The translations under genes were made by a program, and so were the position numbers. Shown here piece by piece: positions 7,661-19,253 of a stretch of DNA of 64,000 bases (its first letter is position 1; the number at the start of each line of letters is the position of its first letter). The DNA is from Candidatus Latescibacterota bacterium (lineage in GTDB: Bacteria; Latescibacterota; UBA2968; GCA-2709665): contig OZ242180.1 in the NCBI GenBank assembly GCA_965205485.1, positions 2,112,001 to 2,176,000 of the forward strand, in the 5' to 3' direction. The notes under the pieces were generated by a model. That model did not search any database and was not told where the DNA came from. It worked only from the letters and a program-made list of their open reading frames with translations.

Positions 7661-7792
7661 GTTCCGCCGAACTTTCGAACGGGAGTCGGGATTCGCTCCA
7701 TTTGCAGATGAGAGAATTTCTTTTAGACAGCTTCCTAGTCCACAACGGCAGGAAAAGATAGCAAAATGAAGCAATCACCGAAAGGAGAATTC

Positions 7793-8149
7793 ATGGCGGA
7801 AGAGACAATCTTCAGCAAGATAATCCGGAAGGAGATCCCTTCGGAAATGACCTACCAGGACGAACTGGTCACAGCGTTTCGAGATATCAACCCTCAGGCG
7901 CCGACTCACATTCTGATCGTGCCCAACAGGGTGATTCCCACCGTCAGCGATGTAACGTGCGAGGACGAGGCCGCGCTCGGCCGGCTGTTTACCGTGGCGG
8001 CCCGGCTCGCGGAAGCCGAAGGGCTTTCCGAGGACGGGTACCGGTTGATCGTGAACTGCCGGGAACACGGCGGTCAGGAGGTCTACCACCTGCATATGCA
8101 TCTGCTCGGCGGACGGCCGCTTGGCCCCATGCTCGCCCGGCGGCGATAA
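7793..8149 (+). CDS. hinT: HIT-family purine nucleoside phosphoramidase
   Basis: [47 protein letters not shown]. Confidence 0.92.
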
Positions 8150-8252
8150 GCGCCGACCGCGGCCCGGCGAGGGCGGGATCGCTGCGCGGCAAGGGTCTCG
8201 CATCCAGTAGGACAGTCCCCGCGGCGCGCTCCCGTTGCCCACCGGATCGCCA

Positions 8253-9092
8253 TTAATTCTGGTCGGGCCACTTGTAGGCCGCCTTCGCGTTCCTCCAGAA
8301 GACTTTCTCGACCGCTTCCTTTCCAATGGCGCCGAAGTACTCCCTGGGGATGCGTTGTACAGTCGCGTAGTCCGCGCCGTGTTCGCATACGGGCCAGTTG
8401 CTGGCATAGATGAGCCGATCCACGCCGAGTATTTCCCAGAGGTGGTCCAGGGTCGGGGCATAGTAGATCAATTCGGGAGGCGCGGGTTCCTGCACGGCGG
8501 TTTCAACCAGGCCGGAGACCTTGCAGTAGATGTTCGGATACCGCGAGACATTGTGCAGGCCGTCGATCCAATCGGGGTCCGGCGTCTTGCCGTCAACGGG
8601 TACATGGATGACATGGTTGAGCACGATGCGCAAGTCCGGCAGCCGGTCGGCAATGCGGACGGCGGAGTGAAGCTGCGCGACGTCGATCAGAAGGTCCAGC
8701 GACAGGTCGGCCTGAGCAAGCAACTCGAGCCTGGAAAACAGCGCGTCGCTGACGTTTTGAACTTCGTTCCTGTGGAGGCGGATGCCGCGGAAGAGGGGAT
8801 TTCCCGCCAGATCCATGAGGTGTTTCTCAAAGTCGTCCGATTCCGGGTCGAGATTACCAACGAAGCCGACGATGAAGGGTTCCGTTTCAGCCAGATCGAG
8901 GATCCAGCGGTTGTCTTCAACCCATTCACTGGCTTCCACGACCACGGTGCCGGTGACGCCCTCGGGAACGGCGACGGCCTTATAATCTTCAGGTAGCACA
9001 CGCCGGTACAGCAGGTTGTCGTCGTGCGGCGGCCAGGGTACCCCTTCGGGGCGGTATGGATCGTAGAAATGGGTATGGGTGTCGATGATCAT
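8253..9092 (-). CDS. Amidohydrolase_2 family (sugar lactonase-like)
   Basis: IIDTHTHFYD, FRGIR, IVLNH, YCKVSG, RLIYASNWP. Confidence 0.85.
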   Translation of the reverse strand: MIIDTHTHFYDPYRPEGVPWPPHDDNLLYRRVLPEDYKAVAVPEGVTGTVVVEASEWVEDNRWILDLAETEPFIVGFVGNLDPESDDFEKHLMDLAGNPLFRGIRLHRNEVQNVSDALFSRLELLAQADLSLDLLIDVAQLHSAVRIADRLPDLRIVLNHVIHVPVDGKTPDPDWIDGLHNVSRYPNIYCKVSGLVETAVQEPAPPELIYYAPTLDHLWEILGVDRLIYASNWPVCEHGADYATVQRIPREYFGAIGKEAVEKVFWRNAKAAYKWPDQN

Positions 9093-9127
9093 CGTCGCAC
9101 TCCTTGTGTTTTTCCAATGCTGAATCC

Positions 9128-9155
9128 TTGACAGAGAAGGTGGATTGCGTATTTT
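9128..9155 (+). promoter_or_regulatory. Putative sigma-70 promoter of the PTPS-family gene
   Basis: TTGACA, 16-nt spacer, TATTTT. Confidence 0.35.
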
Positions 9156-9199
9156 CTATGGCATTTGTCAGCGATGAGCCGAAAAGAGAGACGAGCATC

Positions 9200-9655
9200 A
9201 TGGCCAGGGGAAAAGGACGGTTTTCGTCCACCAAGACGTTTCACAACCTGCCGTGTTCGCACCGACAGGCGCATCACGACGGGCACTGTCAGTTTATTCA
9301 CGGTTACAACCGGGACATTACGTTCCATTTTACGTGCGACGAGCTGGATGAGAATCACTTTGTGGTGGATTTCGGCAAGCTCAAGGAACTGAAGGCGTGG
9401 CTGGAACACATGTTCGACCACACGATGCTGATCAACGAAAACGACCCCGAGCGAGAGCTGTTCGAGGAGATGCACCGCAGGGGGATCGTAGACTTGCGCG
9501 TGATACCCAACGTCGGGATGGAGGCATCCTCCAAATTCGCGTTCGACTATGCCGATCGGATGATACGCGAGAAGACGGACGGGCGTTGCTGGGTCTACCG
9601 GGTGGAGACGCGGGAGAATATGAACAACTCAGGGGTTTACGAGATTGTGCAATAG
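9200..9655 (+). CDS. 6-pyruvoyl/6-carboxy-tetrahydropterin synthase (QueD/PTPS family)
   Basis: CSHRQ..HCQFIHGY, VVDFGKLK, FDHTMLIN, C-terminal E..NNS. Confidence 0.85.
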   Translation: MARGKGRFSSTKTFHNLPCSHRQAHHDGHCQFIHGYNRDITFHFTCDELDENHFVVDFGKLKELKAWLEHMFDHTMLINENDPERELFEEMHRRGIVDLRVIPNVGMEASSKFAFDYADRMIREKTDGRCWVYRVETRENMNNSGVYEIVQ

Positions 9656-9711
9656 CCAGAGCCGTGAATACGCTGTAGACTCGCGCGACCGTCTTATGTG
9701 AGCTCGATCCG

Positions 9712-10737
9712 TCAGCCCCGGAACCGCAACCAGAGTCGCACATAGTGCCGCCGCCGCGCAGGGTCGGCATCGTCCTCGAATGCGGTGCGATTGTGAAGTA
9801 TCCAGCGGTTGTTCGTAAAAAGCATCTGTCCGGGTTGCAGACTGAACTCCACCCTGAATTCCGCGCGGCGAAGCAACGCTTCAACAACTTCCAGTGCGCC
9901 TCTCTGTTCGACCGTCAGCGATTTGCCGGCGCGCTCGTGACCCACCTGGATGTAATAGTACAGGTACCGGAGCGTCAATTCACCCCGGCTCCATCGAAAA
10001 ACCGGGAAATAAGACGTGGGTGAGTCCCCGGACCTGAACTGTCCCCGGCGATCGAAATAGAATCGCTGATAGAGGGTTTCGAGGACATCCGGGTGATTTT
10101 CCAGGAGTTCATTGTGGAGGGCGTAACCGCTGATCAGCTGACTCTGTCCACCGGATTTCGCCGTACGCAGGCAGAGCAGTCCCACGATGTCGGGCAGCCG
10201 TGAACCGAAGGCATTGTCATTGTGAAACGTACTCTCCGCATTGGTCACAGAAAACCTGGCTCCCTGTGTCACATTCTTCCCCGTATCACGGACGTCGTAC
10301 AATAGCGTACCCTCTATATTCTGCTCCATAGGGGCGCCAAGGCATTCGCCGGTCATCCAGTACATCGACTGCGCTTCTTCAGGTGCATATCCGTTGACCG
10401 GCACGCGATTGACGATGGCAAATCCACGCCCTGATCTGAGAGCGTCGAGTACCGGTTGAAGGCATTCTCTGCCGTCAGCCAATGACATGCCCTGGCGGGA
10501 AATCTCCGCAATGGGCAGGTCACGACCCCGTACTTCGCGTACGATGCGTTCACAGCCGGAGAGATAATCCCCCGACAGCGGGTAGTTCCAGGCTGCGGAA
10601 TCATCGATACTACCCGCCCGCCAGGCCCGCTCGTCGTTCACTTCCTCGGTCAACATCTGCGGATTGTTCATTGTCTGGTCTTCTTGCTCCAGGTCGACCA
10701 TGACGCATAAGCCGCCCGGACGCCTCCTTTCTGTCAT
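9712..10737 (-). CDS. TauD/TfdA Fe(II)/2-oxoglutarate dioxygenase (start uncertain)
   Basis: HxD in FHNDN, GLLCLRTAKSGG, NNRWILHNRTAF, RHYVRLW. Confidence 0.88.
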   Translation of the reverse strand: MTERRRPGGLCVMVDLEQEDQTMNNPQMLTEEVNDERAWRAGSIDDSAAWNYPLSGDYLSGCERIVREVRGRDLPIAEISRQGMSLADGRECLQPVLDALRSGRGFAIVNRVPVNGYAPEEAQSMYWMTGECLGAPMEQNIEGTLLYDVRDTGKNVTQGARFSVTNAESTFHNDNAFGSRLPDIVGLLCLRTAKSGGQSQLISGYALHNELLENHPDVLETLYQRFYFDRRGQFRSGDSPTSYFPVFRWSRGELTLRYLYYYIQVGHERAGKSLTVEQRGALEVVEALLRRAEFRVEFSLQPGQMLFTNNRWILHNRTAFEDDADPARRRHYVRLWLRFRG

Positions 10738-10910
10738 TTCTCGATCGAAACAAAAACATTAACTGCGGGATCCGGAACACAAGGTAAAGATAGGATTTCG
10801 ACGGTCGCGGGGCAAGCCCTGGAAACGACGGTCGATAATGTACAGGTCCGAGCCGGAGGTGTTCGCGGAACTCCGGCTCGTTTGCAGACGCGACGAAGGA
10901 TGTATATGTC

Positions 10911-11654
10911 ATGACGGGGGATAGGAAAACCGTGCTGATTACCGGCGCCACGGACGGCATCGGCCGCGCGCTTGCGGAAATCTACCACGCGCGCGACGTC
11001 AGGCTGGTACTGGTGGGCAGGCGACCGCTGGATTCGCTCAAAGAAGGACTCTACAGCGAAGAGACGTATTGCGAGGCGGACCTGTCCGGGGAGGATTGCG
11101 CGGATCAGGTGCGATCGTTTTTCAGTTCGCGGGAGATCGTTTCGCTGGACCTCGCGATTCAGAACGCGGCAGTGGGATACTACGGTACCGTGGCCGACCA
11201 GCCCGTCTCCAGCATTCGTGAGATCGTAGCCGTCAATCTTCTGGCGCCGTTGCGACTGACCCATGCGCTGGTACCATATGTGGACAATGCACGAGGCAAA
11301 CACGTACTCATCGGGTCCATCGCCCATGCGTTCCCATGTCCGGAATTCGCCGTATATGCGGCAGCCAAAGATGCGATCGACGTCTTCGGGCGCAATCTGC
11401 GCGTCGAAGGCGACGTGAACGTCCAGGTCATACACCCGGGGGCAACGCAAACGGGCATTCATCGTAAGTCCGGATGGCAGGACGATCGTTCCAGAGCCTT
11501 CCCGCCGGCGGAACGCGTCGCCCGGCGGATTGCGCGGGCGATCGACGGACGTCGACCCGTGGTGACAATCGGCATGAGAAACAGATGGCTGCGGCTCTGC
11601 GGGCGCTATTGCGACGGCGCGATCGAAGCCCTGATGCGATGGCGGGCGAAATGA
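10911..11654 (+). CDS. Short-chain dehydrogenase/reductase
   Basis: TGATDGIG, QNAAVG, YAAAK. Confidence 0.9.
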   Translation: MTGDRKTVLITGATDGIGRALAEIYHARDVRLVLVGRRPLDSLKEGLYSEETYCEADLSGEDCADQVRSFFSSREIVSLDLAIQNAAVGYYGTVADQPVSSIREIVAVNLLAPLRLTHALVPYVDNARGKHVLIGSIAHAFPCPEFAVYAAAKDAIDVFGRNLRVEGDVNVQVIHPGATQTGIHRKSGWQDDRSRAFPPAERVARRIARAIDGRRPVVTIGMRNRWLRLCGRYCDGAIEALMRWRAK

Positions 11655-12397
11655 AACACGCGGTAATAACGGGCGCGGCCAATGGAATCGGCGAGGCGCT
11701 CGCGCGCAGGCTTGTTCGCGCCGGATATTCCGTAACCGGCGTTGACGTGGATGCAAACCGGGCCGCGGTTCTCGAGCCGGAACTGGGCGCGCGGTTTGTC
11801 ATTGCCGATCTGAGTACCGATTCGGGCGTCGTACGCGTTCACGATCGACTGGCCTCGATGGATACGATCGACGTACTCATTCACAATGCGGGGATCAACG
11901 CCGTGGGACGGTTTCCCCACGTGGGTATGACGGATCAGGAGAAGGTGGTTGCGATAAACTTCCTGGCGCCCATGGTGTTGACGGCGGGGCTGCTGGGGGC
12001 CAACCGCATTGCGCCCGGCGGATCCCTGGTCTTCGTCTCCTCACTCTCGCATTACGTGAGCTATCCAGGGGCAGCGGCGTACGCGGCAACCAAGAGCGGG
12101 CTGGCGTCCTACGCGCGAAGTCTCTCCGTCGCGCTCGCCCCGCGCGAGATTCACGTTATGACGGTCTTTCCGGGTCCCACTCGCACGGCTCATGCCCACC
12201 GGTACAGCCCGGACAACTCGCGAGAGGAAAAACGCATGCCGCCGGAAGACCTGGCCGAGGCCATCTTTCGTGGAATTGGTGAGCGAAAACGTCTGCTCGT
12301 TCCAGGTTTCGGAAACCGAACGGCGGCCTTCCTTGGCGCCTGGTGTCCACGCGTTGTGGAACGGGTGATGCGGCGGGCGATGCTCGGAAGAAACTGA
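11651..12397 (+). CDS. Short-chain dehydrogenase/reductase (ATGA overlap with upstream SDR)
   Basis: TGAANGIG, HNAG, YAATK; start ATG 11651. Confidence 0.9.
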   Translation: MKHAVITGAANGIGEALARRLVRAGYSVTGVDVDANRAAVLEPELGARFVIADLSTDSGVVRVHDRLASMDTIDVLIHNAGINAVGRFPHVGMTDQEKVVAINFLAPMVLTAGLLGANRIAPGGSLVFVSSLSHYVSYPGAAAYAATKSGLASYARSLSVALAPREIHVMTVFPGPTRTAHAHRYSPDNSREEKRMPPEDLAEAIFRGIGERKRLLVPGFGNRTAAFLGAWCPRVVERVMRRAMLGRN

Positions 12398-12421
12398 GGA
12401 TGGGATTGAAGCAGGCAAAGT

Positions 12422-12459
12422 TGCAAGCCCCGGATCGAATTCTGGATCCGGGGCTTGCA
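12422..12459. terminator. Hairpin between convergent SDR and TonB-receptor genes
   Basis: TGCAAGCCCCGGATC-gaattctg-GATCCGGGGCTTGCA, 15-bp perfect stem. Confidence 0.6.
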
Positions 12460-12535
12460 GTTGTGCGCAATGAACCATCCCTGGGGAAGACCGCAGGCTA
12501 TCCGCTGGCGCATCGCCGTCGACTCGGGGGGGAAA

Positions 12536-14857
12536 CTAGAAGAAATACATCTTGTAGTTCAGTTTAAGGCTGCGTCCGGTTTCGGGCATTACGGACCGGA
12601 TGCGCGACAGGTGGTTTCGGTATTCCGTGTCGAAGAGATTCTCAAGGGAAAGGATAAAGCTGTGGCGGGCCTGATTTGTGAGGAAATCCCGCTGTAAGTA
12701 AACGCCGAAGACGGAATAACCTGCGGTGGGGTCCTCGTAGGTATCCACGCGTTCCTGACCCGCGGCCCACTCCATGGTCCCTCCCCCGGTAAGCCAGTGG
12801 TGCCTGTAGGTTGCGCTGCCCACAAACTTAAGCGGCGGCATTTCGGGCAGGGGCATGCGGTCGTTCCGGTTTTCGCCGCGCACGTGGCTCAGGTTTATCT
12901 CCAGTTCCAGGCGCGCGTTCGGACGCCATTTCAGGTGGGTCTCCACGCCCGTCATTCTCGCGTCTATACCTTCCGCGGCGTAGATGGGAAGTAGCTGGGC
13001 AAAGTTGATTTCTCCCGTATTTCGCGGCGCGATGTAATTGTCGAATTCGTTCCAGAATCCCGTGAAGACCAGGTCGAATCCCGGCTGCAGATAGTGGAAG
13101 AATGCCTCCGCGCCGAAACTGCGTTCGGCATTGAGTTCCACATTGCCCTTCTCAAAGGTGTAAGCGGCCAGGTGCGGTCCCTCGTTGTAGAGTTCCTCGA
13201 TGGTGGGCGCGCGCTGGGAGCGGCTGAGGTTGAATCCAGCGGTCAACTGGTCGGTAATCGGCACGAGCGGGCTGAATGCCGCGGACCATGTATGGAAGAC
13301 GCGGTCTACGTCCAGGCTCTTGTTGGTGATTGTCTGGAGGCGCGGGTCGAAGGTGGCATAGGCGTACCGGGCCGCGGCCTGTAATTCGATATTGCGCCAG
13401 GTAGTTTCGTGATACAGCCCGAAGTTGACGTCCTGCTTTCGTGTGGGCGGGGTGAAGACAAACGCGCCCAGCTTGAGATTGCGATGGTCGAAGCCGGCGG
13501 TGAGAACAATGTTTTGTTCCTGGTTTCCCGTGTTCAGGTAGAGCTTGAGATCGCCGCTGTAGTCGTGAAAGAGGAATTCGGAACCGATGCTGCCGCTTGA
13601 TTCGTACTCGACGTGGTAGTAATAGGCCTTCGTAAAGCCCGCCTCGATTCGGTCGGCCGTTCCGCCGTCAAACCGATGGACAGCCTTCCCGTCGAAGACC
13701 CGGCGCATGATATCGAGGTCCGCGCCATTGGGATGCGCGCCGATGAAGCCGCCCGGAATGCCGTACTGAGTCTCGAACTGATCGAATGAAGCGCCGACGT
13801 ACCCCCGGTCGCCCGCGTAAGACAGGCCGAGGGCATATGTGCGGGTGTTGATGGGCGTGTTGGCAAGCCGGCCGACCGGGGTCTGGATGTCCCTGGTATC
13901 CCGGTAGGTGGACTCGGCATGCATCGCGAGCGGCCCCAGGGGCGCCGTGAGGGCGGCGGACGAGAAGTAACCCCGGTTCGCAGTCTCTCCGTAGGCGCCC
14001 ACGCTCCCGAAGAAGCGCTCCGGTCGGGTTTCGGGGATCCTGTGCTTGACGATGTTGATTACCCCGCCGCCGGCCGTGGACGTGTGCAGCAACGTGCGGG
14101 GCCCGCGGATGATTTCCAGGCGTTCCGCGTTGAAAGTCTCGACAGTTACCGCATGATCGGCCGAAGTTGCGGAAAGGTCCTGAGACTGAATGCCGTCGAC
14201 GTTGATCTGTACGCGGTCGCCGCTGAGCCCGCGGATGACGGGGCGGGCCGGCGCCGGACCCATGCTCTGGATGGCAACGCCGAGTTCATTCTTCATGGTC
14301 TCGGCCAACGTGATGCTGTATTTCTTCCTGAGTTCGTCGCCCGAAAGCACCCGGGTGGCCTCATGCAGTTCCTCAAATCGGGTTTCAGCGCGTTCGGCCA
14401 CAACGTCAATGGGGTCCAGCAGGTGATCCAGCCGCGTCAGTTCCAGATAAACAACAGGATGCTTGGCACCCGAGATGTTCAGTTGGTGGTTCGTTTCCTG
14501 ATAGCCGACGTGCGTAAGCGAAAGCCGATAGTCACCCGGTGACAGATGGAGTACGAACCGGCCTTTTTCGTCGGTAGACGCGCCCGGGGAGTGATCTGCG
14601 GATTGGACGTTCACGTTCCAGATGGGCAACCCTGTCTCGCTGTCGAAGACGTACCCTTCGATCAACACGGCCTGCGTTGCCGAGCTGATACCCGCCGGAA
14701 AGCCCAGAAACAGCAACGTGAGCGCCGACAGGATGAAGGATATCCGGATGGCGAAACGGTGGCTGGAGCCGTCACCGGGGTGCAGATACGTTAACCTGAA
14801 CAAGTGAGCCATCTGGAATGTGCTCCGACGTTGCAGATGGCGGGAGGGCGAGAACAA
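12536..14857 (-). CDS. TonB-dependent outer-membrane receptor (metal-uptake type, ZnuD-like by inference)
   Basis: N-terminal CarboxypepD-like domain, plug RPVIRGL..RLEIIRGP, barrel with ELYNEGPHLAA, C-terminal NLFDTEYRNHLS and terminal F; TTG start with GGGAGG SD (alternative ATG 14812). Confidence 0.92.
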   Translation of the reverse strand: MFSPSRHLQRRSTFQMAHLFRLTYLHPGDGSSHRFAIRISFILSALTLLFLGFPAGISSATQAVLIEGYVFDSETGLPIWNVNVQSADHSPGASTDEKGRFVLHLSPGDYRLSLTHVGYQETNHQLNISGAKHPVVYLELTRLDHLLDPIDVVAERAETRFEELHEATRVLSGDELRKKYSITLAETMKNELGVAIQSMGPAPARPVIRGLSGDRVQINVDGIQSQDLSATSADHAVTVETFNAERLEIIRGPRTLLHTSTAGGGVINIVKHRIPETRPERFFGSVGAYGETANRGYFSSAALTAPLGPLAMHAESTYRDTRDIQTPVGRLANTPINTRTYALGLSYAGDRGYVGASFDQFETQYGIPGGFIGAHPNGADLDIMRRVFDGKAVHRFDGGTADRIEAGFTKAYYYHVEYESSGSIGSEFLFHDYSGDLKLYLNTGNQEQNIVLTAGFDHRNLKLGAFVFTPPTRKQDVNFGLYHETTWRNIELQAAARYAYATFDPRLQTITNKSLDVDRVFHTWSAAFSPLVPITDQLTAGFNLSRSQRAPTIEELYNEGPHLAAYTFEKGNVELNAERSFGAEAFFHYLQPGFDLVFTGFWNEFDNYIAPRNTGEINFAQLLPIYAAEGIDARMTGVETHLKWRPNARLELEINLSHVRGENRNDRMPLPEMPPLKFVGSATYRHHWLTGGGTMEWAAGQERVDTYEDPTAGYSVFGVYLQRDFLTNQARHSFILSLENLFDTEYRNHLSRIRSVMPETGRSLKLNYKMYFF

Positions 14858-14877
14858 CCCTCCCGCCGCGTTTCCTG

Positions 14878-16131
14878 CTACGGTGCGGTGATTGCCACCG
14901 AAATGGGCGCGAATTCGTCTTCCGCCTCGCCGTCGTGGAGAATGGAAAGCGTTATGGTGGTGGTGCCGGCCTTCTTGCCGATGAGTCTGAAGGCCCAGTA
15001 TTCGGGCGCTACCGGCGGATCGATGGCGAGCAACGAGGTGTCGGCCACCGCAATCCCAAGCGTCTCGTCGGGCGCTTCCGGCTGGAATTCCACATCGTGT
15101 TCGTCAAAGAAGAACGCCGCGATGTGGTCGGTTGTATCACCGACGGCGACAGTCAGGGCCTCGGTGGCTTCACCTTCTCCCTTCAGGGGCGCCTGCGTGA
15201 GCAGCTCACCGCTATCTTCCTCTTTGAGCCGAACGCCCACGGGTTCCTCGTGCTGGCCCTCCTGTGACTCCACGTGTACGGGAATAGGCTGTGTGCGGTA
15301 GTCAACGTGCCCTTCGTGTTTGACTTCGAATACAATGGTGGTTTCGCCCTCCTGCAAACCGCGCAGGTGGAAGTCGAAAGAACCCTCGTCTCCCTCGTCC
15401 TGGTGGACTTCGAGTATGTCGGGATCGGCAATGGTCCAGCCGAACGTGAATTCGGGATCGTCCGGCGGGTCTAATTCCTCTCCGTGTTCGTCCAGAAACA
15501 TGATGCGCCAGTGAGGCGTCAGGCCGATCGGGGCCGAGAGTTCCGATACCCGACCTTCGCCGGAGTCGATCTCGCCCTGGAAATACCGGAAGAATCGAAC
15601 GCCGGATTCGATGATGACCAGCCCTTCCGCCTCGAACTCTCCGACCACATGCACCGGGAGCGGCAGCGTGGTGAAGTCCACGTGCCCTTCGTGCGAAATC
15701 TGAAGCCTGATGGTGGTTTCACCATCTTCGAGGCCGCGCAGGGCGAAGACGAATTTACCCGCTTCCCCCGCGTCCTGGACGACTTCCACAATATCTTTAT
15801 CCGCGATTTCCCAAGTGAAACTGAAGCCCTCGCCGGTGGGGGGCGCCATTTCGTTTCCGTCTTTGTCCAGGAAGCGGATGCTCCACTTGCTGGTGACTTC
15901 GCCGTGATGGACTTCCAGGGCTTCCGCCCGGCCGTCGCCCGAGTCGATCCTGCCCTGGAAATAGCGGAAGAACCGCTGGCCTCCGTCGAGGAGGACGAGG
16001 CCTTCGGCTTCGTAATGCTCTTCCTGTGGCGTAACGGGGTCATCTTTTCCACAACCGGACAGGAATACGGCGACAACCGCCGCCGATGCAATCCAGTGAA
16101 GGGATGTTTTCATCTTCAGCATGCTGAACAT
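14878..16131 (-). CDS. Lipoprotein with three tandem ~125-aa beta-rich repeats carrying HEGHVD motifs; putative metal-binding
   Basis: Lipobox FLSG/C; repeats begin EAEGLV..FFRYFQG twice, third copy degenerate; acidic and His-rich; AGGAG SD before ATG 16131. Confidence 0.8.
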   Translation of the reverse strand: MFSMLKMKTSLHWIASAAVVAVFLSGCGKDDPVTPQEEHYEAEGLVLLDGGQRFFRYFQGRIDSGDGRAEALEVHHGEVTSKWSIRFLDKDGNEMAPPTGEGFSFTWEIADKDIVEVVQDAGEAGKFVFALRGLEDGETTIRLQISHEGHVDFTTLPLPVHVVGEFEAEGLVIIESGVRFFRYFQGEIDSGEGRVSELSAPIGLTPHWRIMFLDEHGEELDPPDDPEFTFGWTIADPDILEVHQDEGDEGSFDFHLRGLQEGETTIVFEVKHEGHVDYRTQPIPVHVESQEGQHEEPVGVRLKEEDSGELLTQAPLKGEGEATEALTVAVGDTTDHIAAFFFDEHDVEFQPEAPDETLGIAVADTSLLAIDPPVAPEYWAFRLIGKKAGTTTITLSILHDGEAEDEFAPISVAITAP

Positions 16132-16445
16132 TAATGTTCTCCTGTGTACCAGAATGTAACTTCGCCCGATAATCGCATGAACATCCGCCTGTGTGGCGGA
16201 CGAACTGCAGTTGTGCCGGCAAGTTACCGACACGCAAATTCACCGGGCCGGTTATCCGCCTTTGCGGATGCAGCCTGACCCGGAGAGGGGCGGGAATGCG
16301 CGATACGCAGTTCCAAGAGCCTACCCGCATACAGGACCGAGCCACATTTATGCAAGCGCGGATTCTAGCCGGGGCGGACCTGGAACGATCTAGTTGAAAA
16401 ATCCGGAAGTACTGAGGATGTGTCATGAAGACACGTGAGGATGGA

Positions 16446-16721
16446 TCAGAACACAGGAGGGGCGCGTCTTTCAGGCAGAAGGAGGGAAGAGCGCGGGGAA
16501 CGGAACGAGGAGAAACCCCGCCTGAAATGCAGAAAACAAAGTTGCAACACCAGCACTGCCGGCAGACCGATGCTCAGGTTGTTGAACCAGGCGCAGACAG
16601 TACATTGTTGATCGTGATCGTGTCCGGGGAATGCGGCAAGCAGGAAAACCGCGAGGTAGGCCGTGAATATTGCCAGAGCGAAAGTGGCAAAAGGATGAAT
16701 CCGTCTGCAGGAAAAAAACAT
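16446..16721 (-). CDS. DUF2946/CruR-like leader peptide (TM helix, HDHD, CxxC, C-terminal RAPP)
   Basis: 91 aa: FATFALAIFTAYLAVFLLAAF-PGHDHDQQCTVC...ERRAPPVF*; lies upstream of, and co-oriented with, the lipoprotein and TBDR. Confidence 0.75.
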   Translation of the reverse strand: MFFSCRRIHPFATFALAIFTAYLAVFLLAAFPGHDHDQQCTVCAWFNNLSIGLPAVLVLQLCFLHFRRGFSSFRSPRSSLLLPERRAPPVF

Positions 16722-16847
16722 CCCTACCGTCTCCGGAAGAGTACAGAACTTACCGGGATCCGTACGGAAATATACCGGAAACCATCGGTTTCGTCAAGTG
16801 AACGGAAGGCCGGAAGCAGCCGATGCGAGTCAGGTCTGTGCCGATCG

Positions 16848-19253
16848 TTATTTAACCAGGAGCATGCGATTGGTGAGCGCGCTGCCCGGATGCGCCAGCC
16901 GATAGAAATAAACACCGCTTGAAACGGTACGCCCGAACCCGTCCCGTCCGTCCCACATGACCTCGTACCGGCCCGGACCCTGGTGATCCCGTACCAGAAC
17001 CCGTACCTGTTGACCCAGCACATTGTAGATCGTGAGGTCGACCTGCCCCGGTTCAGGGATCCGGTAAACGATCCGGGTTGAGGGGTTGAACGGGTTGGGT
17101 GTATTCGGATAAAGCGCCAGCGTCTCCGGAGCCAGCGAACTTTCGTCCTCCACGCGGGCGACGCCGCCTACGGGCAGGAGAAGTGTGATTTCCCGCCCGC
17201 CGTTGATCGGCACACTCTCCCATTTGGAAGTCGTATTGCCCGCGATATCCACGGCGCGAACCGCGTAGTAGCCCGAAACGCTTCCGGGGCTGTCAGGTCG
17301 GATTTCTATCGTGGCGCGGCCTTCGGCGTCGGTTGTGCCCCTCCACCTGTACTTCCTCTCCCGGCCGGAAACGGAACGTGAGAATTCGACCCTTGCGTGC
17401 GGTATCGGCCCGCCGTCCCGCGTCAGGAACACGTGTACGACAGAGCGATTCGCGAGGTTCGATTCGTCCGCATGTATCGGTTGCCCGGTGGTTATCCGGC
17501 CCTGTCCACCTACCGGATAGGCCGCCGCCGTGATGCGGCCGTCGAGGCCTTCCCTGATGAAGTTGACAAGCGCCTGCTGGTAGGTTACACCCAGACGTGT
17601 AAAGCGGGCGCCCCGATAGGGGTACTGGTCACCGCCCCTGGCGAGGAAGTCAACTGTTGCCACGTGAATGTCCGGCGCCCCGGATATGACGTTTCCGTTT
17701 CTGACGATACCGGCGCCGGTGTCGAGGGTTATTTCCACAATGCGGCCGCCGCGCCGCGTGACGTTTCCGCGCTCATCCAGTTCCTGAGCGACGCCATCGG
17801 GATTCCAGACCATCGTGAAGCCGGAAATCTGGGCGAACCGGCCCGAGGTGCGTTCTACCTGCGAGACCGCGTTCTCCAAGACTTCCCTGAATTGTGCCGC
17901 AGGAACGGCGGGCACGACGGTTACGAAGTTGGGGAATGGCAGCATATCGAAGGTCGTGAGTTCGGATACCGTGCCCGCGGGAATCTCATTGGCGTTGCGA
18001 ATTCCCCCGCCGTTCGCGATGCCCACGTGTGGAACGGGGACGCCGAACGACGAGGCAAGCTGTGCGCTCTGCCATCGGAGGGCGTCGGCCACCAGGTTGC
18101 CTTCGTTGGTCTCTCCGGTTCGAATTCTGCTTCTCACGCCGTCGAGCACAACTTCCGACGTTCCCACTTGATTTAAAGCCATTGAGGCAAGGGCATCGCT
18201 GACCGGGGCCACGATCCGATTCCGGACCTCTGTGTCGGGAGCCACGGCATCCGGCAGGCCGCCGCCGGCCACCCGCACCGGGCCGCTGGCGTTTCGGTCG
18301 ACTGACGTAATGACGCCGGCAGCGTCGAAGCTCGCAACGAACCGGCCGACGTATCGATAATTCCCTGCGGTGGTGACAACGTGTACGTCGTTTCCGTCAG
18401 CGCCCTGTTCGAGTATGGGGTACGGTCCGGAAATCTCTGCTTCGTCGCCGGGAATCAGGCGCGTGCCGGGATTTGCCAGGAGGTCGTCGCCGCCGCCCGC
18501 AATCACCACGTCCACGCCCCGCAATTCCCGGACGAGCTCCAGGTCGTTGTCAATGGACTGGAGGTGGCTGATCAGGACGATGATTCGCACGCCGCGTAGC
18601 GCCAGCCCGTTCACCTCGGCCTGGATGGCTTCCCGCAGCCGGCGGCCCACTCTCACGTTTCGCGGGCTGGAGATGAACGCCAGGTCCGGTGTGGTCGCGC
18701 CCACAATGCCGATATGTTCGCCGTCGACTCTGACGACCGTGCTCCCGGCAATCCGACCGGAAGTGACGAGAGCTGCCAGTTCCGGTTCGTCCCCGAAGTC
18801 CAGGTTGGCGCTGAGATATGGCGGGCCGGTGAGGCTGTAGCTGGAAATGAACCTGGCCAGGATGTCCGGTCCGAAGTCGAAGTCGTGGTTGCCGATGCAT
18901 ACGGCGTCGTACCCGATCAGGTCCATCGCCAGGGCGTCGTAGAAGGGGGCGGATTCGGGGAGCCCGAGGCTGACGTTGAATTCGGGGCCGGCGAGGAAGT
19001 TGTCGCCCGACGAAACCATGAGTACGCCGCCGTCCATACGCGCTTCCGCTTTGAGCCGATCTGCCAGGGCCTTGAATCGACCCACGCCGCCGAAGTCTTC
19101 CAGGCCCTCTCCGGCATTTATCAGCTGGGACTCGCCGTCGTTATTGTGCAGAATGGTGAGTTTGAACTCGCCGGCGGGCGCGGCGCCGGATACCGTAAAC
19201 AGACAGATCAACAGGAAGACAGTCGGACCCCATAGCTGGATTCGATGAAACAC
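16848..19253 (-). CDS. Secreted 5'-nucleotidase/PhoA-type metallophosphoesterase with C-terminal FlgD-Ig-like domain
   Basis: Signal peptide; LHNNDGES, SSGDNF, GNHDFD; 5'-NT C-domain ETNEGNLVADA, NGGGIR; tail NTPNPFNPST..WDGRD..SGVYFYRL; GTG start with GGAGG SD. Confidence 0.88.
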   Translation of the reverse strand: MFHRIQLWGPTVFLLICLFTVSGAAPAGEFKLTILHNNDGESQLINAGEGLEDFGGVGRFKALADRLKAEARMDGGVLMVSSGDNFLAGPEFNVSLGLPESAPFYDALAMDLIGYDAVCIGNHDFDFGPDILARFISSYSLTGPPYLSANLDFGDEPELAALVTSGRIAGSTVVRVDGEHIGIVGATTPDLAFISSPRNVRVGRRLREAIQAEVNGLALRGVRIIVLISHLQSIDNDLELVRELRGVDVVIAGGGDDLLANPGTRLIPGDEAEISGPYPILEQGADGNDVHVVTTAGNYRYVGRFVASFDAAGVITSVDRNASGPVRVAGGGLPDAVAPDTEVRNRIVAPVSDALASMALNQVGTSEVVLDGVRSRIRTGETNEGNLVADALRWQSAQLASSFGVPVPHVGIANGGGIRNANEIPAGTVSELTTFDMLPFPNFVTVVPAVPAAQFREVLENAVSQVERTSGRFAQISGFTMVWNPDGVAQELDERGNVTRRGGRIVEITLDTGAGIVRNGNVISGAPDIHVATVDFLARGGDQYPYRGARFTRLGVTYQQALVNFIREGLDGRITAAAYPVGGQGRITTGQPIHADESNLANRSVVHVFLTRDGGPIPHARVEFSRSVSGRERKYRWRGTTDAEGRATIEIRPDSPGSVSGYYAVRAVDIAGNTTSKWESVPINGGREITLLLPVGGVARVEDESSLAPETLALYPNTPNPFNPSTRIVYRIPEPGQVDLTIYNVLGQQVRVLVRDHQGPGRYEVMWDGRDGFGRTVSSGVYFYRLAHPGSALTNRMLLVK

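Follow-up and report, generated by a model that had tools for sequence, protein, structure and literature searches.

A 64,000-nt stretch of the genome of a Candidatus Latescibacterota bacterium (assembly GCA_965205485.1, contig OZ242180.1, positions 2,112,001–2,176,000; hereafter the window) carries, on its reverse strand, a short gene followed by genes for a lipoprotein and a TonB-dependent receptor. The short gene is very likely an arrest-type regulatory leader, and on balance we favor, with modest confidence, a fuller reading in which it is a conserved leader whose ribosome arrest is relieved by zinc and which precedes a ZnuD-type operon. The initial annotation of this DNA had proposed a switch resembling CruR, the arrest peptide of Bordetella pertussis in which a CxxC motif precedes a RAPP motif, probably sensing a metal other than copper; this proposal is supported by comparative evidence, both synteny and motifs being conserved.

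The 91-residue open reading frame is present in the sequence exactly as first described, with a transmembrane helix, HDHD at residues 34–37, CTVC at 40–43 and, after a gap of 42 residues, RAPP at 86–89, two codons (Val-Phe) before the stop; the same holds for the 314-nt spacer, with 19 C and 8 G in its first 60 nt, and for the lipoprotein and receptor genes that follow (Table 1). Taken alone, the pair of CxxC and RxPP motifs lies within chance expectation, with three frames observed against 1.5 expected among the 106,056 frames of the genome, all three being leaders of the same family; it is because of its conservation that the leader is considered real. The possibility, raised at the outset, that the downstream genes have a promoter of their own found no backing: a consensus scan of 12300–17000 detected no sigma-70-like promoter in the spacer, and the second promoter-like match in this interval lies on the opposite strand, within the receptor gene. 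Sites similar to the leader's promoter occur at the equivalent position ahead of operon-heading leaders in genera g1 and g2. Three candidates were rejected: intrinsic attenuation of the classical type, the terminator-scan match (16534–16516) lying inside the leader coding region and none in the spacer; a 6-bp inverted repeat between −35 and −10 as an operator, which by eye is absent from the relatives' promoters; and a match of the leader to NCBIfam PRK10633 (23.5 versus 107 bits), taken for a transmembrane artefact.

A profile built from 21 leaders from lipoprotein loci of the first two families, which under-detects other families, matched in 57 of 168 Latescibacterota genomes, 15 of 49 genera and four families (18 of 21, 27 of 31, 2 of 3 and 9 of 76 genomes; none in ten further families). 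The motifs are kept and the cargo genes are of the same types, so that the loss of conservation named in the initial annotation as counting against the switch did not occur. Over the stretch from CxxC to RxPP, dN/dS is 0.28 (20 sequences, the window's genus) and 0.46 (26 sequences, genus g6), and both Cys, a Trp, the Arg and both Pro are invariant across these alignments; the leader is under purifying selection. Searching 1.84 billion representative sequences with the leader profile gave 153 matches at E ≤ 0.001, and 146 of the best 150 of these have CxxC 41–46 residues ahead of a C-terminal RxPP (RAPP in 84, RSPP in 57). The spacing is 42 in the window, 42–43 in the phylum and 41–46 in the wider family. 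By hydropathy, the N-terminal hydrophobic helix is found in all 88 aligned family members and the second hydrophobic segment in 20 of 21 close leaders and 67 of 88 wider members; at least two His residues occur among the 18 residues preceding CxxC in 88 of 88, the search profile itself favoring His.

The relation to known arrest peptides is remote. The DUF2946 (PF11162) search suggested in the initial annotation gave a match whose aligned stretch is exactly CxxC to RAPP, but one that stays below threshold (12.1 bits versus a cut-off of 23.7; 16.8 bits, still below, for the top-scoring leader copy of the genome). Three of the 98 wider relatives scanned, out of 150 listed, exceed the cut-off, and 33 of 88 family members match at E ≤ 0.05. 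Among named language-model clusters, DUF2946 (0.90) and DUF2607 (0.89) lie nearest, the latter being a lead only: DUF2607 (PF10795) gave no match on the genome's leaders and is absent from the 25 Pfam families most matched by the 88 members. Judged by these profile comparisons, the leader is related to CruR and CutF only remotely and does not formally belong to DUF2946.

Leaders also occur in multiple copies and variant forms. The genome has three copies, that of the window and two in a paralogous locus, where the second leader lies between lipoprotein and receptor. Tandem pairs head one operon at L090:588-1288, L092 and L135, and at some other loci leaders stand on both sides of the lipoprotein gene. 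A broader profile recovered two more leaders, L154:4522-5055 and L155:6473-6856, ahead of the same lipoprotein–receptor pair; in both, C-P-V-H replaces CxxC, a natural Cys-to-His ligand swap. The L143 leader (G009:C1:1508294-1508566) has an internal stop at the conserved Trp codon, and the first leader of L132 has lost its RAPP end. Two lipoprotein loci, L153, with insertion-sequence-like genes upstream, and L156, showed no leader nearby.

Which genes follow the leader was recorded in 60 regions around profile matches, all distant genera included, and at the genome's two loci (81 leader hits in 62 regions). The next gene encodes the lipoprotein in 57 of the 81; a protein of ~400 residues, followed by ZnuA and an ABC-3 permease, in eight; a receptor in seven (one only 26% alike); another leader in four (in one case the two halves of a single broken leader); MerC in three, followed in two of these by FolE2; and a Zrg-type ATPase, followed by FtsX and DUF3299, in two. 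No PepSY_TM, PCuAC, Sco or CopC gene stands directly after any of the 81 leader hits, and neither does CbiM or HupE. In genus g6, the leader unit ends a cluster of Fur-family, COG0523, ABC/FtsX/DUF3299 and MerC genes, with CDF transporter genes further downstream at some loci. In the accessible parts of the cited papers, to which statements about published work are confined here and below, znuABC, TonB receptors, folE2, COG0523 and zrg are recurrent members of Zur regulons (PMC6103462, PMC9817125); the portions of the literature searched showed no link between MerC and Zur.

Similar gene order recurs in a distant metagenome clade, related to the leader family with a profile–profile probability of 98.7%. 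A leader is present in 11 of its 12 loci, and the four loci that are long enough all continue with a porin-like gene of ~440 codons and then ZnuA; four others end inside the first gene and one at its start, and the remaining loci show a TonB receptor with ExbB in one case and a Fur-family gene just upstream in another. From such contexts, the leader's cargo likely points to zinc. Of the suggestion in the initial annotation that the leader might sense Zn, Ni or Co rather than Cu, the part that speaks against copper agrees with the cargo (0 of 81 next genes are copper genes), and the choice is narrowed to zinc by the cargo and by the ZnuD ligands of the receptor described below.

Several features of these operons may be noted beside the census. 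In distant lineages, exported proteins of ~380–440 residues without a family assignment lie between leader and ZnuA (L090:1327-2559, L094:4832-5971, L166:4352-5668); the exported protein before ZnuA, for which a weak BBP2 match was seen, is probably a zinc-regulated porin. In most of these operons no ABC ATPase was seen between ZnuA and the permease. A chlorite-dismutase-family gene repeatedly follows leader-controlled genes (L109–L125, L090, L092), sometimes with a CDF transporter. Just upstream of the leader–MerC–FolE2 unit, a gene for 138 residues without a Pfam match (L091:159-575, L098:193-612) has, by eye, a ribbon-helix-helix-like start and two CxxC pairs, and possibly encodes a new metal-responsive regulator.

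The receptor of the window is closest to ZnuD. It scores 199.5 bits with the NCBIfam ZnuD model (NF038289), far below the cut-off of 950, versus 62.1 bits with the copper receptor model, and its profile matches the structure of ZnuD with E = 3.6e-67 and that of OprC with E = 3.7e-26. In profile alignment to PDB 4RDR, D234, H235, E417 and H562 fall on the four zinc ligands of ZnuD (D99, H100, E340 and H499; PMC6288298; a numbering offset of 14 was deduced from the alignment) and do not vary in any of the 11 homologues. Cys is absent from the receptor; CrtA copper receptors likewise lack it (PMC12914433), so this absence does not by itself argue against copper. The start of the receptor gene is probably the ATG at 14812, the frame being open from a TTG at 14857.

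The lipoprotein is present in 47 of 61 related genomes searched. All 26 repeats compared share one invariant His, and at least 90% also keep a second His-x-Asp-Phe. A single-repeat model reached a pLDDT of 91, with structural matches to generic Ig-like folds only (TM about 0.5), while a full-length single-sequence model was poor (pLDDT 58); the protein has no PDB sequence match, no Pfam family over cut-off and only unnamed atlas clusters. It may capture metal for the receptor; a complex prediction of the receptor with one repeat gave a score of 0.16 (mark 0.32). At other loci, receptors directly after a leader (G000:C1:3500850-3506549 (−), L145, L140, L135, L144) begin with a degenerate version of the lipoprotein's ribosome-binding site (RBS) and first ~30 codons, which suggests that a module of leader, spacer and start was duplicated and then fused to the receptor gene.

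A Zur-like gene stands beside the genome's single znuA, and a pair of Zur-box-like matches lies at 2755044–2755063, ~3 kb upstream of znuA (cluster G000:C1:2748909-2755060, L032 and upstream). A scan of the genome with a pattern of proteobacterial type, which fits the boxes printed in Zur papers, gave eight matches, none at either leader operon; the lineage's own Fur-family protein may use a different box. The genome's only two ZnuD-like genes both lie behind leaders. Strong Zur-like genes (over 120 bits) occur in 6 of 61 genomes searched, all of the window's genus, which suggests that the znuA–zur cluster was acquired recently. Of the genome's two Fur-family genes, the second is by eye similar to one that heads g6 clusters.

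How the leader would act on the operon may be read from its last codons. When 16500..16100 is folded, the Pro-Pro-Val codons (16459..16451) form 9 bp with the RBS of the lipoprotein (16147..16139) in both the minimum-energy and the centroid structure (z −3.3). This pairing was tested for 65 of the 81 leader hits, 16 without a clear next start or motif being dropped and starts being picked by hand; the loci are related, and kinship inflates the tests. The ensemble is dominated by the helix at 25 of the 27 g6 loci, and at 22 of the 27 the helix outperforms synonymously recoded sequences. Across 23 loci (one per genus plus eight metagenome loci), the duplex between tail and RBS is 1.8 kcal/mol stronger for cognate than for non-cognate pairs (p = 5e-5), with p = 0.0015 for the codons after Pro-Pro alone; over 30 resamples of the cognate test the median p was 0.002 and the maximum 0.03, and two control targets gave p values of 0.39 and 0.18. 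The window ranks first of the 23. Tail and RBS show matched changes at L124, L106, L097 and L170, with a counter-example at L122. With the footprint of a stalled ribosome masked, opening the RBS costs at least 2 kcal/mol less at 39 of 66 loci, versus 8 of 66 with a mask placed 33 nt upstream (6 of 72 loci, with spacers over 340 nt, were dropped); in the window the cost falls from 14.1 to 11.4 with the stall mask and to 13.9 with the control mask. When the tail was matched without constraint to the 420 nt downstream, its duplex partner was the RBS in g6 but other targets in the window. Pairing with the RBS thus appears, from these computations, to be the better supported output family-wide, its signal being weak in the window's genus.

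In the mechanism that we propose, one transcript would start at the promoter before the leader, which is plausible by sequence and is followed by no further sigma-70-like site in the spacer. By analogy with CruR, ApdA and ApdP, the ribosome would arrest at RAPP by default, with the first Pro in the P site; as computed, the stalled ribosome would cover the anti-Shine-Dalgarno codons and the start of the C-rich tract, leaving the operon on. The N-terminal helix presumably directs the growing chain to the membrane. The His/Cys site, lying 45 residues from the peptidyl-transferase centre, would be at or beyond the tunnel exit, where it may sample either cytoplasmic or periplasmic metal. Metal-driven folding at this site, which is predicted to bind zinc, may pull the chain free, whereupon the ribosome would terminate, the helix between anti-Shine-Dalgarno and Shine-Dalgarno would form, Rho could load, and lipoprotein and receptor would be switched off. 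That metal turns the operon off, not on, is proposed because the cargo consists of uptake and zinc-sparing genes.

Several observations weigh against this reading. Pro-Pro codons are complementary to any Shine-Dalgarno sequence, so that pairing needs testing against controls, and in the window's genus the helix dominates in only 5 of 20 loci, beats synonymous recoding in 8 of 20 and beats control RBSs in none of 20. For the window itself, the recoding test gave p = 0.010, and the comparison with 300 control RBSs gave p = 0.113, which is not significant. Pairing is absent in six loci of family f3 and in L154 and L155. The stall mask acts in 5 of 14 loci of the window's genus, the control mask in 4 of 14, and a narrower mask leaves the window's Shine-Dalgarno mostly paired (unpaired 0.01 → 0.05). 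A His at the end of the helix, nearly invariant across the wider family, is Leu28 in the window's leader, and leaders at two close loci (L143 and the first of L132) are damaged. As to the metal, sites of CxxC with His are not specific for Zn and also bind Cu, Co and Ni, the Pfam ZnuA family also takes in Mn and Fe binders, and CbiM and cobalamin genes adjoin several leader clusters. Finally, a Fur-family repressor could also act on the leader promoter.

Weak pairing in the window's genus is what would be expected if the switch were the same but its output there were mainly Rho-dependent, as in CruR, with the anti-Shine-Dalgarno pairing a by-product of C-rich Pro codons. A rho gene is present in the genome, and the window carries a C-rich tract as well as the pairing: 35 C and 13 G in the 78 nt from 16510. 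The excess of C over G after this leader's stop, +11, is reached by 4.6% of 3,964 post-stop segments of the genome, and mean excesses are +10.8 at 20 loci of the window's genus and +1.2 at 27 loci of g6, against a background of 0.0 ± 6.3. Over 13 genera, longer spacers go with a larger excess (rho 0.65, p = 0.017), and where the excess is larger, pairing tends to be weaker (rho 0.50, p = 0.08). Yet complementarity is locus-specific across genera and in the unrelated clade, with controls at chance, g6 pairs strongly without a C excess after the stop, and the window has the best cognate duplex of its row. We therefore regard a mainly Rho-dependent output as unlikely, though deserving of attention; the two outputs can coexist, and this alternative overlaps with the explanation that we prefer. 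The Rho-dependent termination invoked in the initial annotation accordingly stands as one of two candidate outputs, backed by the C-rich tract and the rho gene, the tract being absent in g6.

The remaining alternatives concern what, if anything, is sensed. A sensor of the arrest-peptide type that responds to cobalt or nickel, or to divalent ions without distinction, would fit the CbiM/CbiQ-type, COG0523/CobW GTPase and cobalamin-salvage genes that adjoin leader clusters L149–L152, L158 and L163, and His-rich CutF-like clusters have been linked to HupE/UreJ Ni/Co transporters (PMC9973294); it is improbable given that the receptor keeps four of four ZnuD ligands, that FolE2, ZnuA/ABC-3 and DUF3299 are zinc-starvation cargo, and that CbiM and HupE are missing from the position directly after the leader. 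Two hydrophobic segments in most members, the RAPP peptides known as monitors of Sec and YidC (PMC10951233), and the Fur-family genes at the head of some clusters (L150, L158, L175), besides the two in the genome, would suit a product that is no metal switch but either a stable peptide of the membrane or an arrest peptide whose sole role is to monitor membrane insertion or boost translation, metal control resting with a Fur-family repressor. This is quite improbable: CxxC is kept at a fixed distance from RxPP in nearly all of the 150 proteins listed, the leader recurs ahead of six kinds of cargo and has further copies in tandem or within operons, and strong Zur-like genes are rare among the genomes searched. 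Very improbable, finally, is an ordinary copper-sensing CruR orthologue controlling copper import. The DUF2946 similarity, falling as it does exactly on CxxC to RAPP, speaks for it, as does the role of CxxC in CruR, where it senses copper and the effect of zinc is only moderate (PMC9426467); against it are the resemblance of the receptor to ZnuD, not to OprC, and the lack of copper genes after any of the leader hits. Our preferred reading thus remains a zinc-relieved arrest leader.

Table 1 Features of the leader operon in the window
Feature	Coordinates	Strand	Basis
Sigma-70-like promoter of leader, TTGACG-17-TATATT	16769..16797	−	10/12 consensus matches
GGAG ribosome-binding site of leader	16731..16734	−	Sequence
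Leader gene, 91 aa, remote DUF2946 (CruR/CutF-like) arrest-peptide candidate	16446..16721	−	Open reading frame and profile searches
N-terminal hydrophobic helix (~residues 10–31) after basic N-terminus; predicted signal anchor	16629..16694	−	Hydropathy
His/Cys site H34-D-H36-D-Q-Q-C40-T-V-C43; predicted metal site	16593..16622	−	Sequence, family alignment
Second hydrophobic segment (~residues 46–66), between CxxC and RAPP	16524..16586	−	Hydropathy
RAPP arrest motif, candidate (RSPP in many relatives)	16455..16466	−	Sequence comparison
Anti-Shine-Dalgarno in Pro-Pro-Val codons, within footprint of ribosome stalled at RAPP	16451..16459	−	Folding, duplex tests
C-rich, G-poor tract, leader end and first 60 nt of spacer; candidate Rho loading site	16386..16540	−	Base counts
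314-nt spacer, predicted hairpins closed by anti-Shine-Dalgarno/Shine-Dalgarno helix; lipoprotein ATG at 16131	16132..16445	−	Folding
Lipoprotein ribosome-binding site, partner strand of anti-Shine-Dalgarno	16139..16147	−	Folding, sequence
Lipoprotein, 417 aa, lipobox Cys27, three Ig-like repeats, conserved H-x-G/D-H-x-D-F motif	14878..16131	−	Alignment, single-repeat model
11-bp G+C-rich hairpin between lipoprotein and receptor genes, no U-tract; possible mRNA-stabilizing element	14839..14867	−	Sequence
ZnuD-like TonB-dependent receptor, N-terminal carboxypeptidase-regulatory-like domain	12536..14812	−	Profile and PDB matches

Upstream of the operon, 16848–19253 (−) encodes a 5′-nucleotidase-like metallophosphoesterase whose C-terminal T9SS-type sorting domain exceeds the TIGR04183 cut-off. 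Downstream, 7766–12478 holds genes for a HIT-like protein (by eye), an amidohydrolase, a QueD/PTPS-family protein, a TauD-family dioxygenase and two short-chain dehydrogenases; these neighbors are unlinked to the leader operon in distant relatives. An inverted repeat lies near 12420–12470, downstream of the operon.

To our knowledge, metal-sensing arrest peptides have been shown only for copper, and control of zinc uptake is ascribed to DNA-binding repressors. A zinc-tuned leader, if real, would give zinc homeostasis a translational layer and account for the control of zinc-starvation genes in bacteria without a recognizable Zur box. With its 91 residues and fixed geometry, it would offer a simple test case for how metal binding by a nascent chain releases RAPP arrest and for the basis of metal choice; it could also serve as a marker by which zinc operons of uncultured phyla are annotated, and it singles out the Ig-repeat His lipoproteins as a family that likely helps to capture zinc. 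More tentatively, the leaders may form a widespread, unannotated His/CxxC–RxPP family of zinc sensors within the translating ribosome, portable before receptor, ABC-importer, FolE2 and Zrg operons and standing in for a missing Zur, with RBS occlusion as the output of short spacers, Rho as that of long C-rich ones, and tandem or internal stacking that sharpens or stages the response. The literature searched, with most subscription papers outside its reach, contained no zinc-sensing arrest peptide. According to the CruR paper, neither Zn nor Cu has a known riboswitch, and the three supplements searched contain no mention of 'zinc', 'ZnuA' or Latescibacterota (PMC9426467).

Among known systems, CruR (BP2923, DUF2946/PF11162; before bfrG/crtA in Bordetella pertussis; PMC9426467, PMC12992588, PMC12914433) is like the leader in being the first gene of an importer operon, in its export signal, in a CxxC at a fixed distance before a C-terminal RAPP, in a long spacer, in a tract with more C than G and in the predicted sign, metal turning the operon off; the first-gene position holds for the window, some relatives' copies being internal. 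The leader is smaller (91 versus 145 residues), and its distance from CxxC to RAPP is 42 (41–46 in the family) versus 45, conserved within 1–2 residues, in CruR (PMC9426467). It further differs from CruR in the His cluster before CxxC, the second hydrophobic segment, a score under the Pfam cut-off, a different phylum, ZnuD-type and zinc-starvation cargo in place of copper genes, and the pairing of its last codons with the next RBS. For CruR (PMC12992588) as well as for ApdA and ApdP (PMC10951233), RAPP has been shown to arrest the ribosome with Pro in both the P site and the A site. The export signal is dispensable in CruR (PMC9426467) and essential in CutF (PMC9973294; bioRxiv 10.1101/2025.02.05.636593).

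CutF itself (before cutO in Rhodobacter capsulatus; PMC9973294, bioRxiv 10.1101/2025.02.05.636593) is likewise an exported DUF2946-type protein whose stalling uncovers the next RBS, but it stalls more with Cu, induces detoxification and acts through a local stem-loop in a short spacer, whereas the cargo of the leader implies the opposite sign and its helix spans 314 nt, starting inside the arrest codons. SecM, ApdA and ApdP (PMC10951233) share with our model the arrest at RAPP or RAGP, relief by pulling force and unmasking of the Shine-Dalgarno sequence; they monitor protein export and have no His/Cys site. The receptor has its closest structural relative in ZnuD of Neisseria meningitidis (PDB 4RDR; PMC6288298), with which its four zinc ligands align, and is unlike it in having an extra N-terminal domain and in having as its partner an Ig-repeat His lipoprotein that belongs to no known family. 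In Zur regulons, ZrgD (DUF2607) is the first gene of the Zur-repressed zrg operon of Vibrio (PMC9817125), and CC2720 (DUF2946) the first gene of a Zur-activated efflux operon in Caulobacter (PMC6103462, PMC4176598, PMC9817125); in the accessible passages of the Zur literature neither is described as a leader. The cargo of these regulons is the same as that of the leader, namely znuABC, ZnuD-type receptors, folE2, COG0523 and zrg, but its control is transcriptional (PMC6103462, PMC4176598, PMC9817125).

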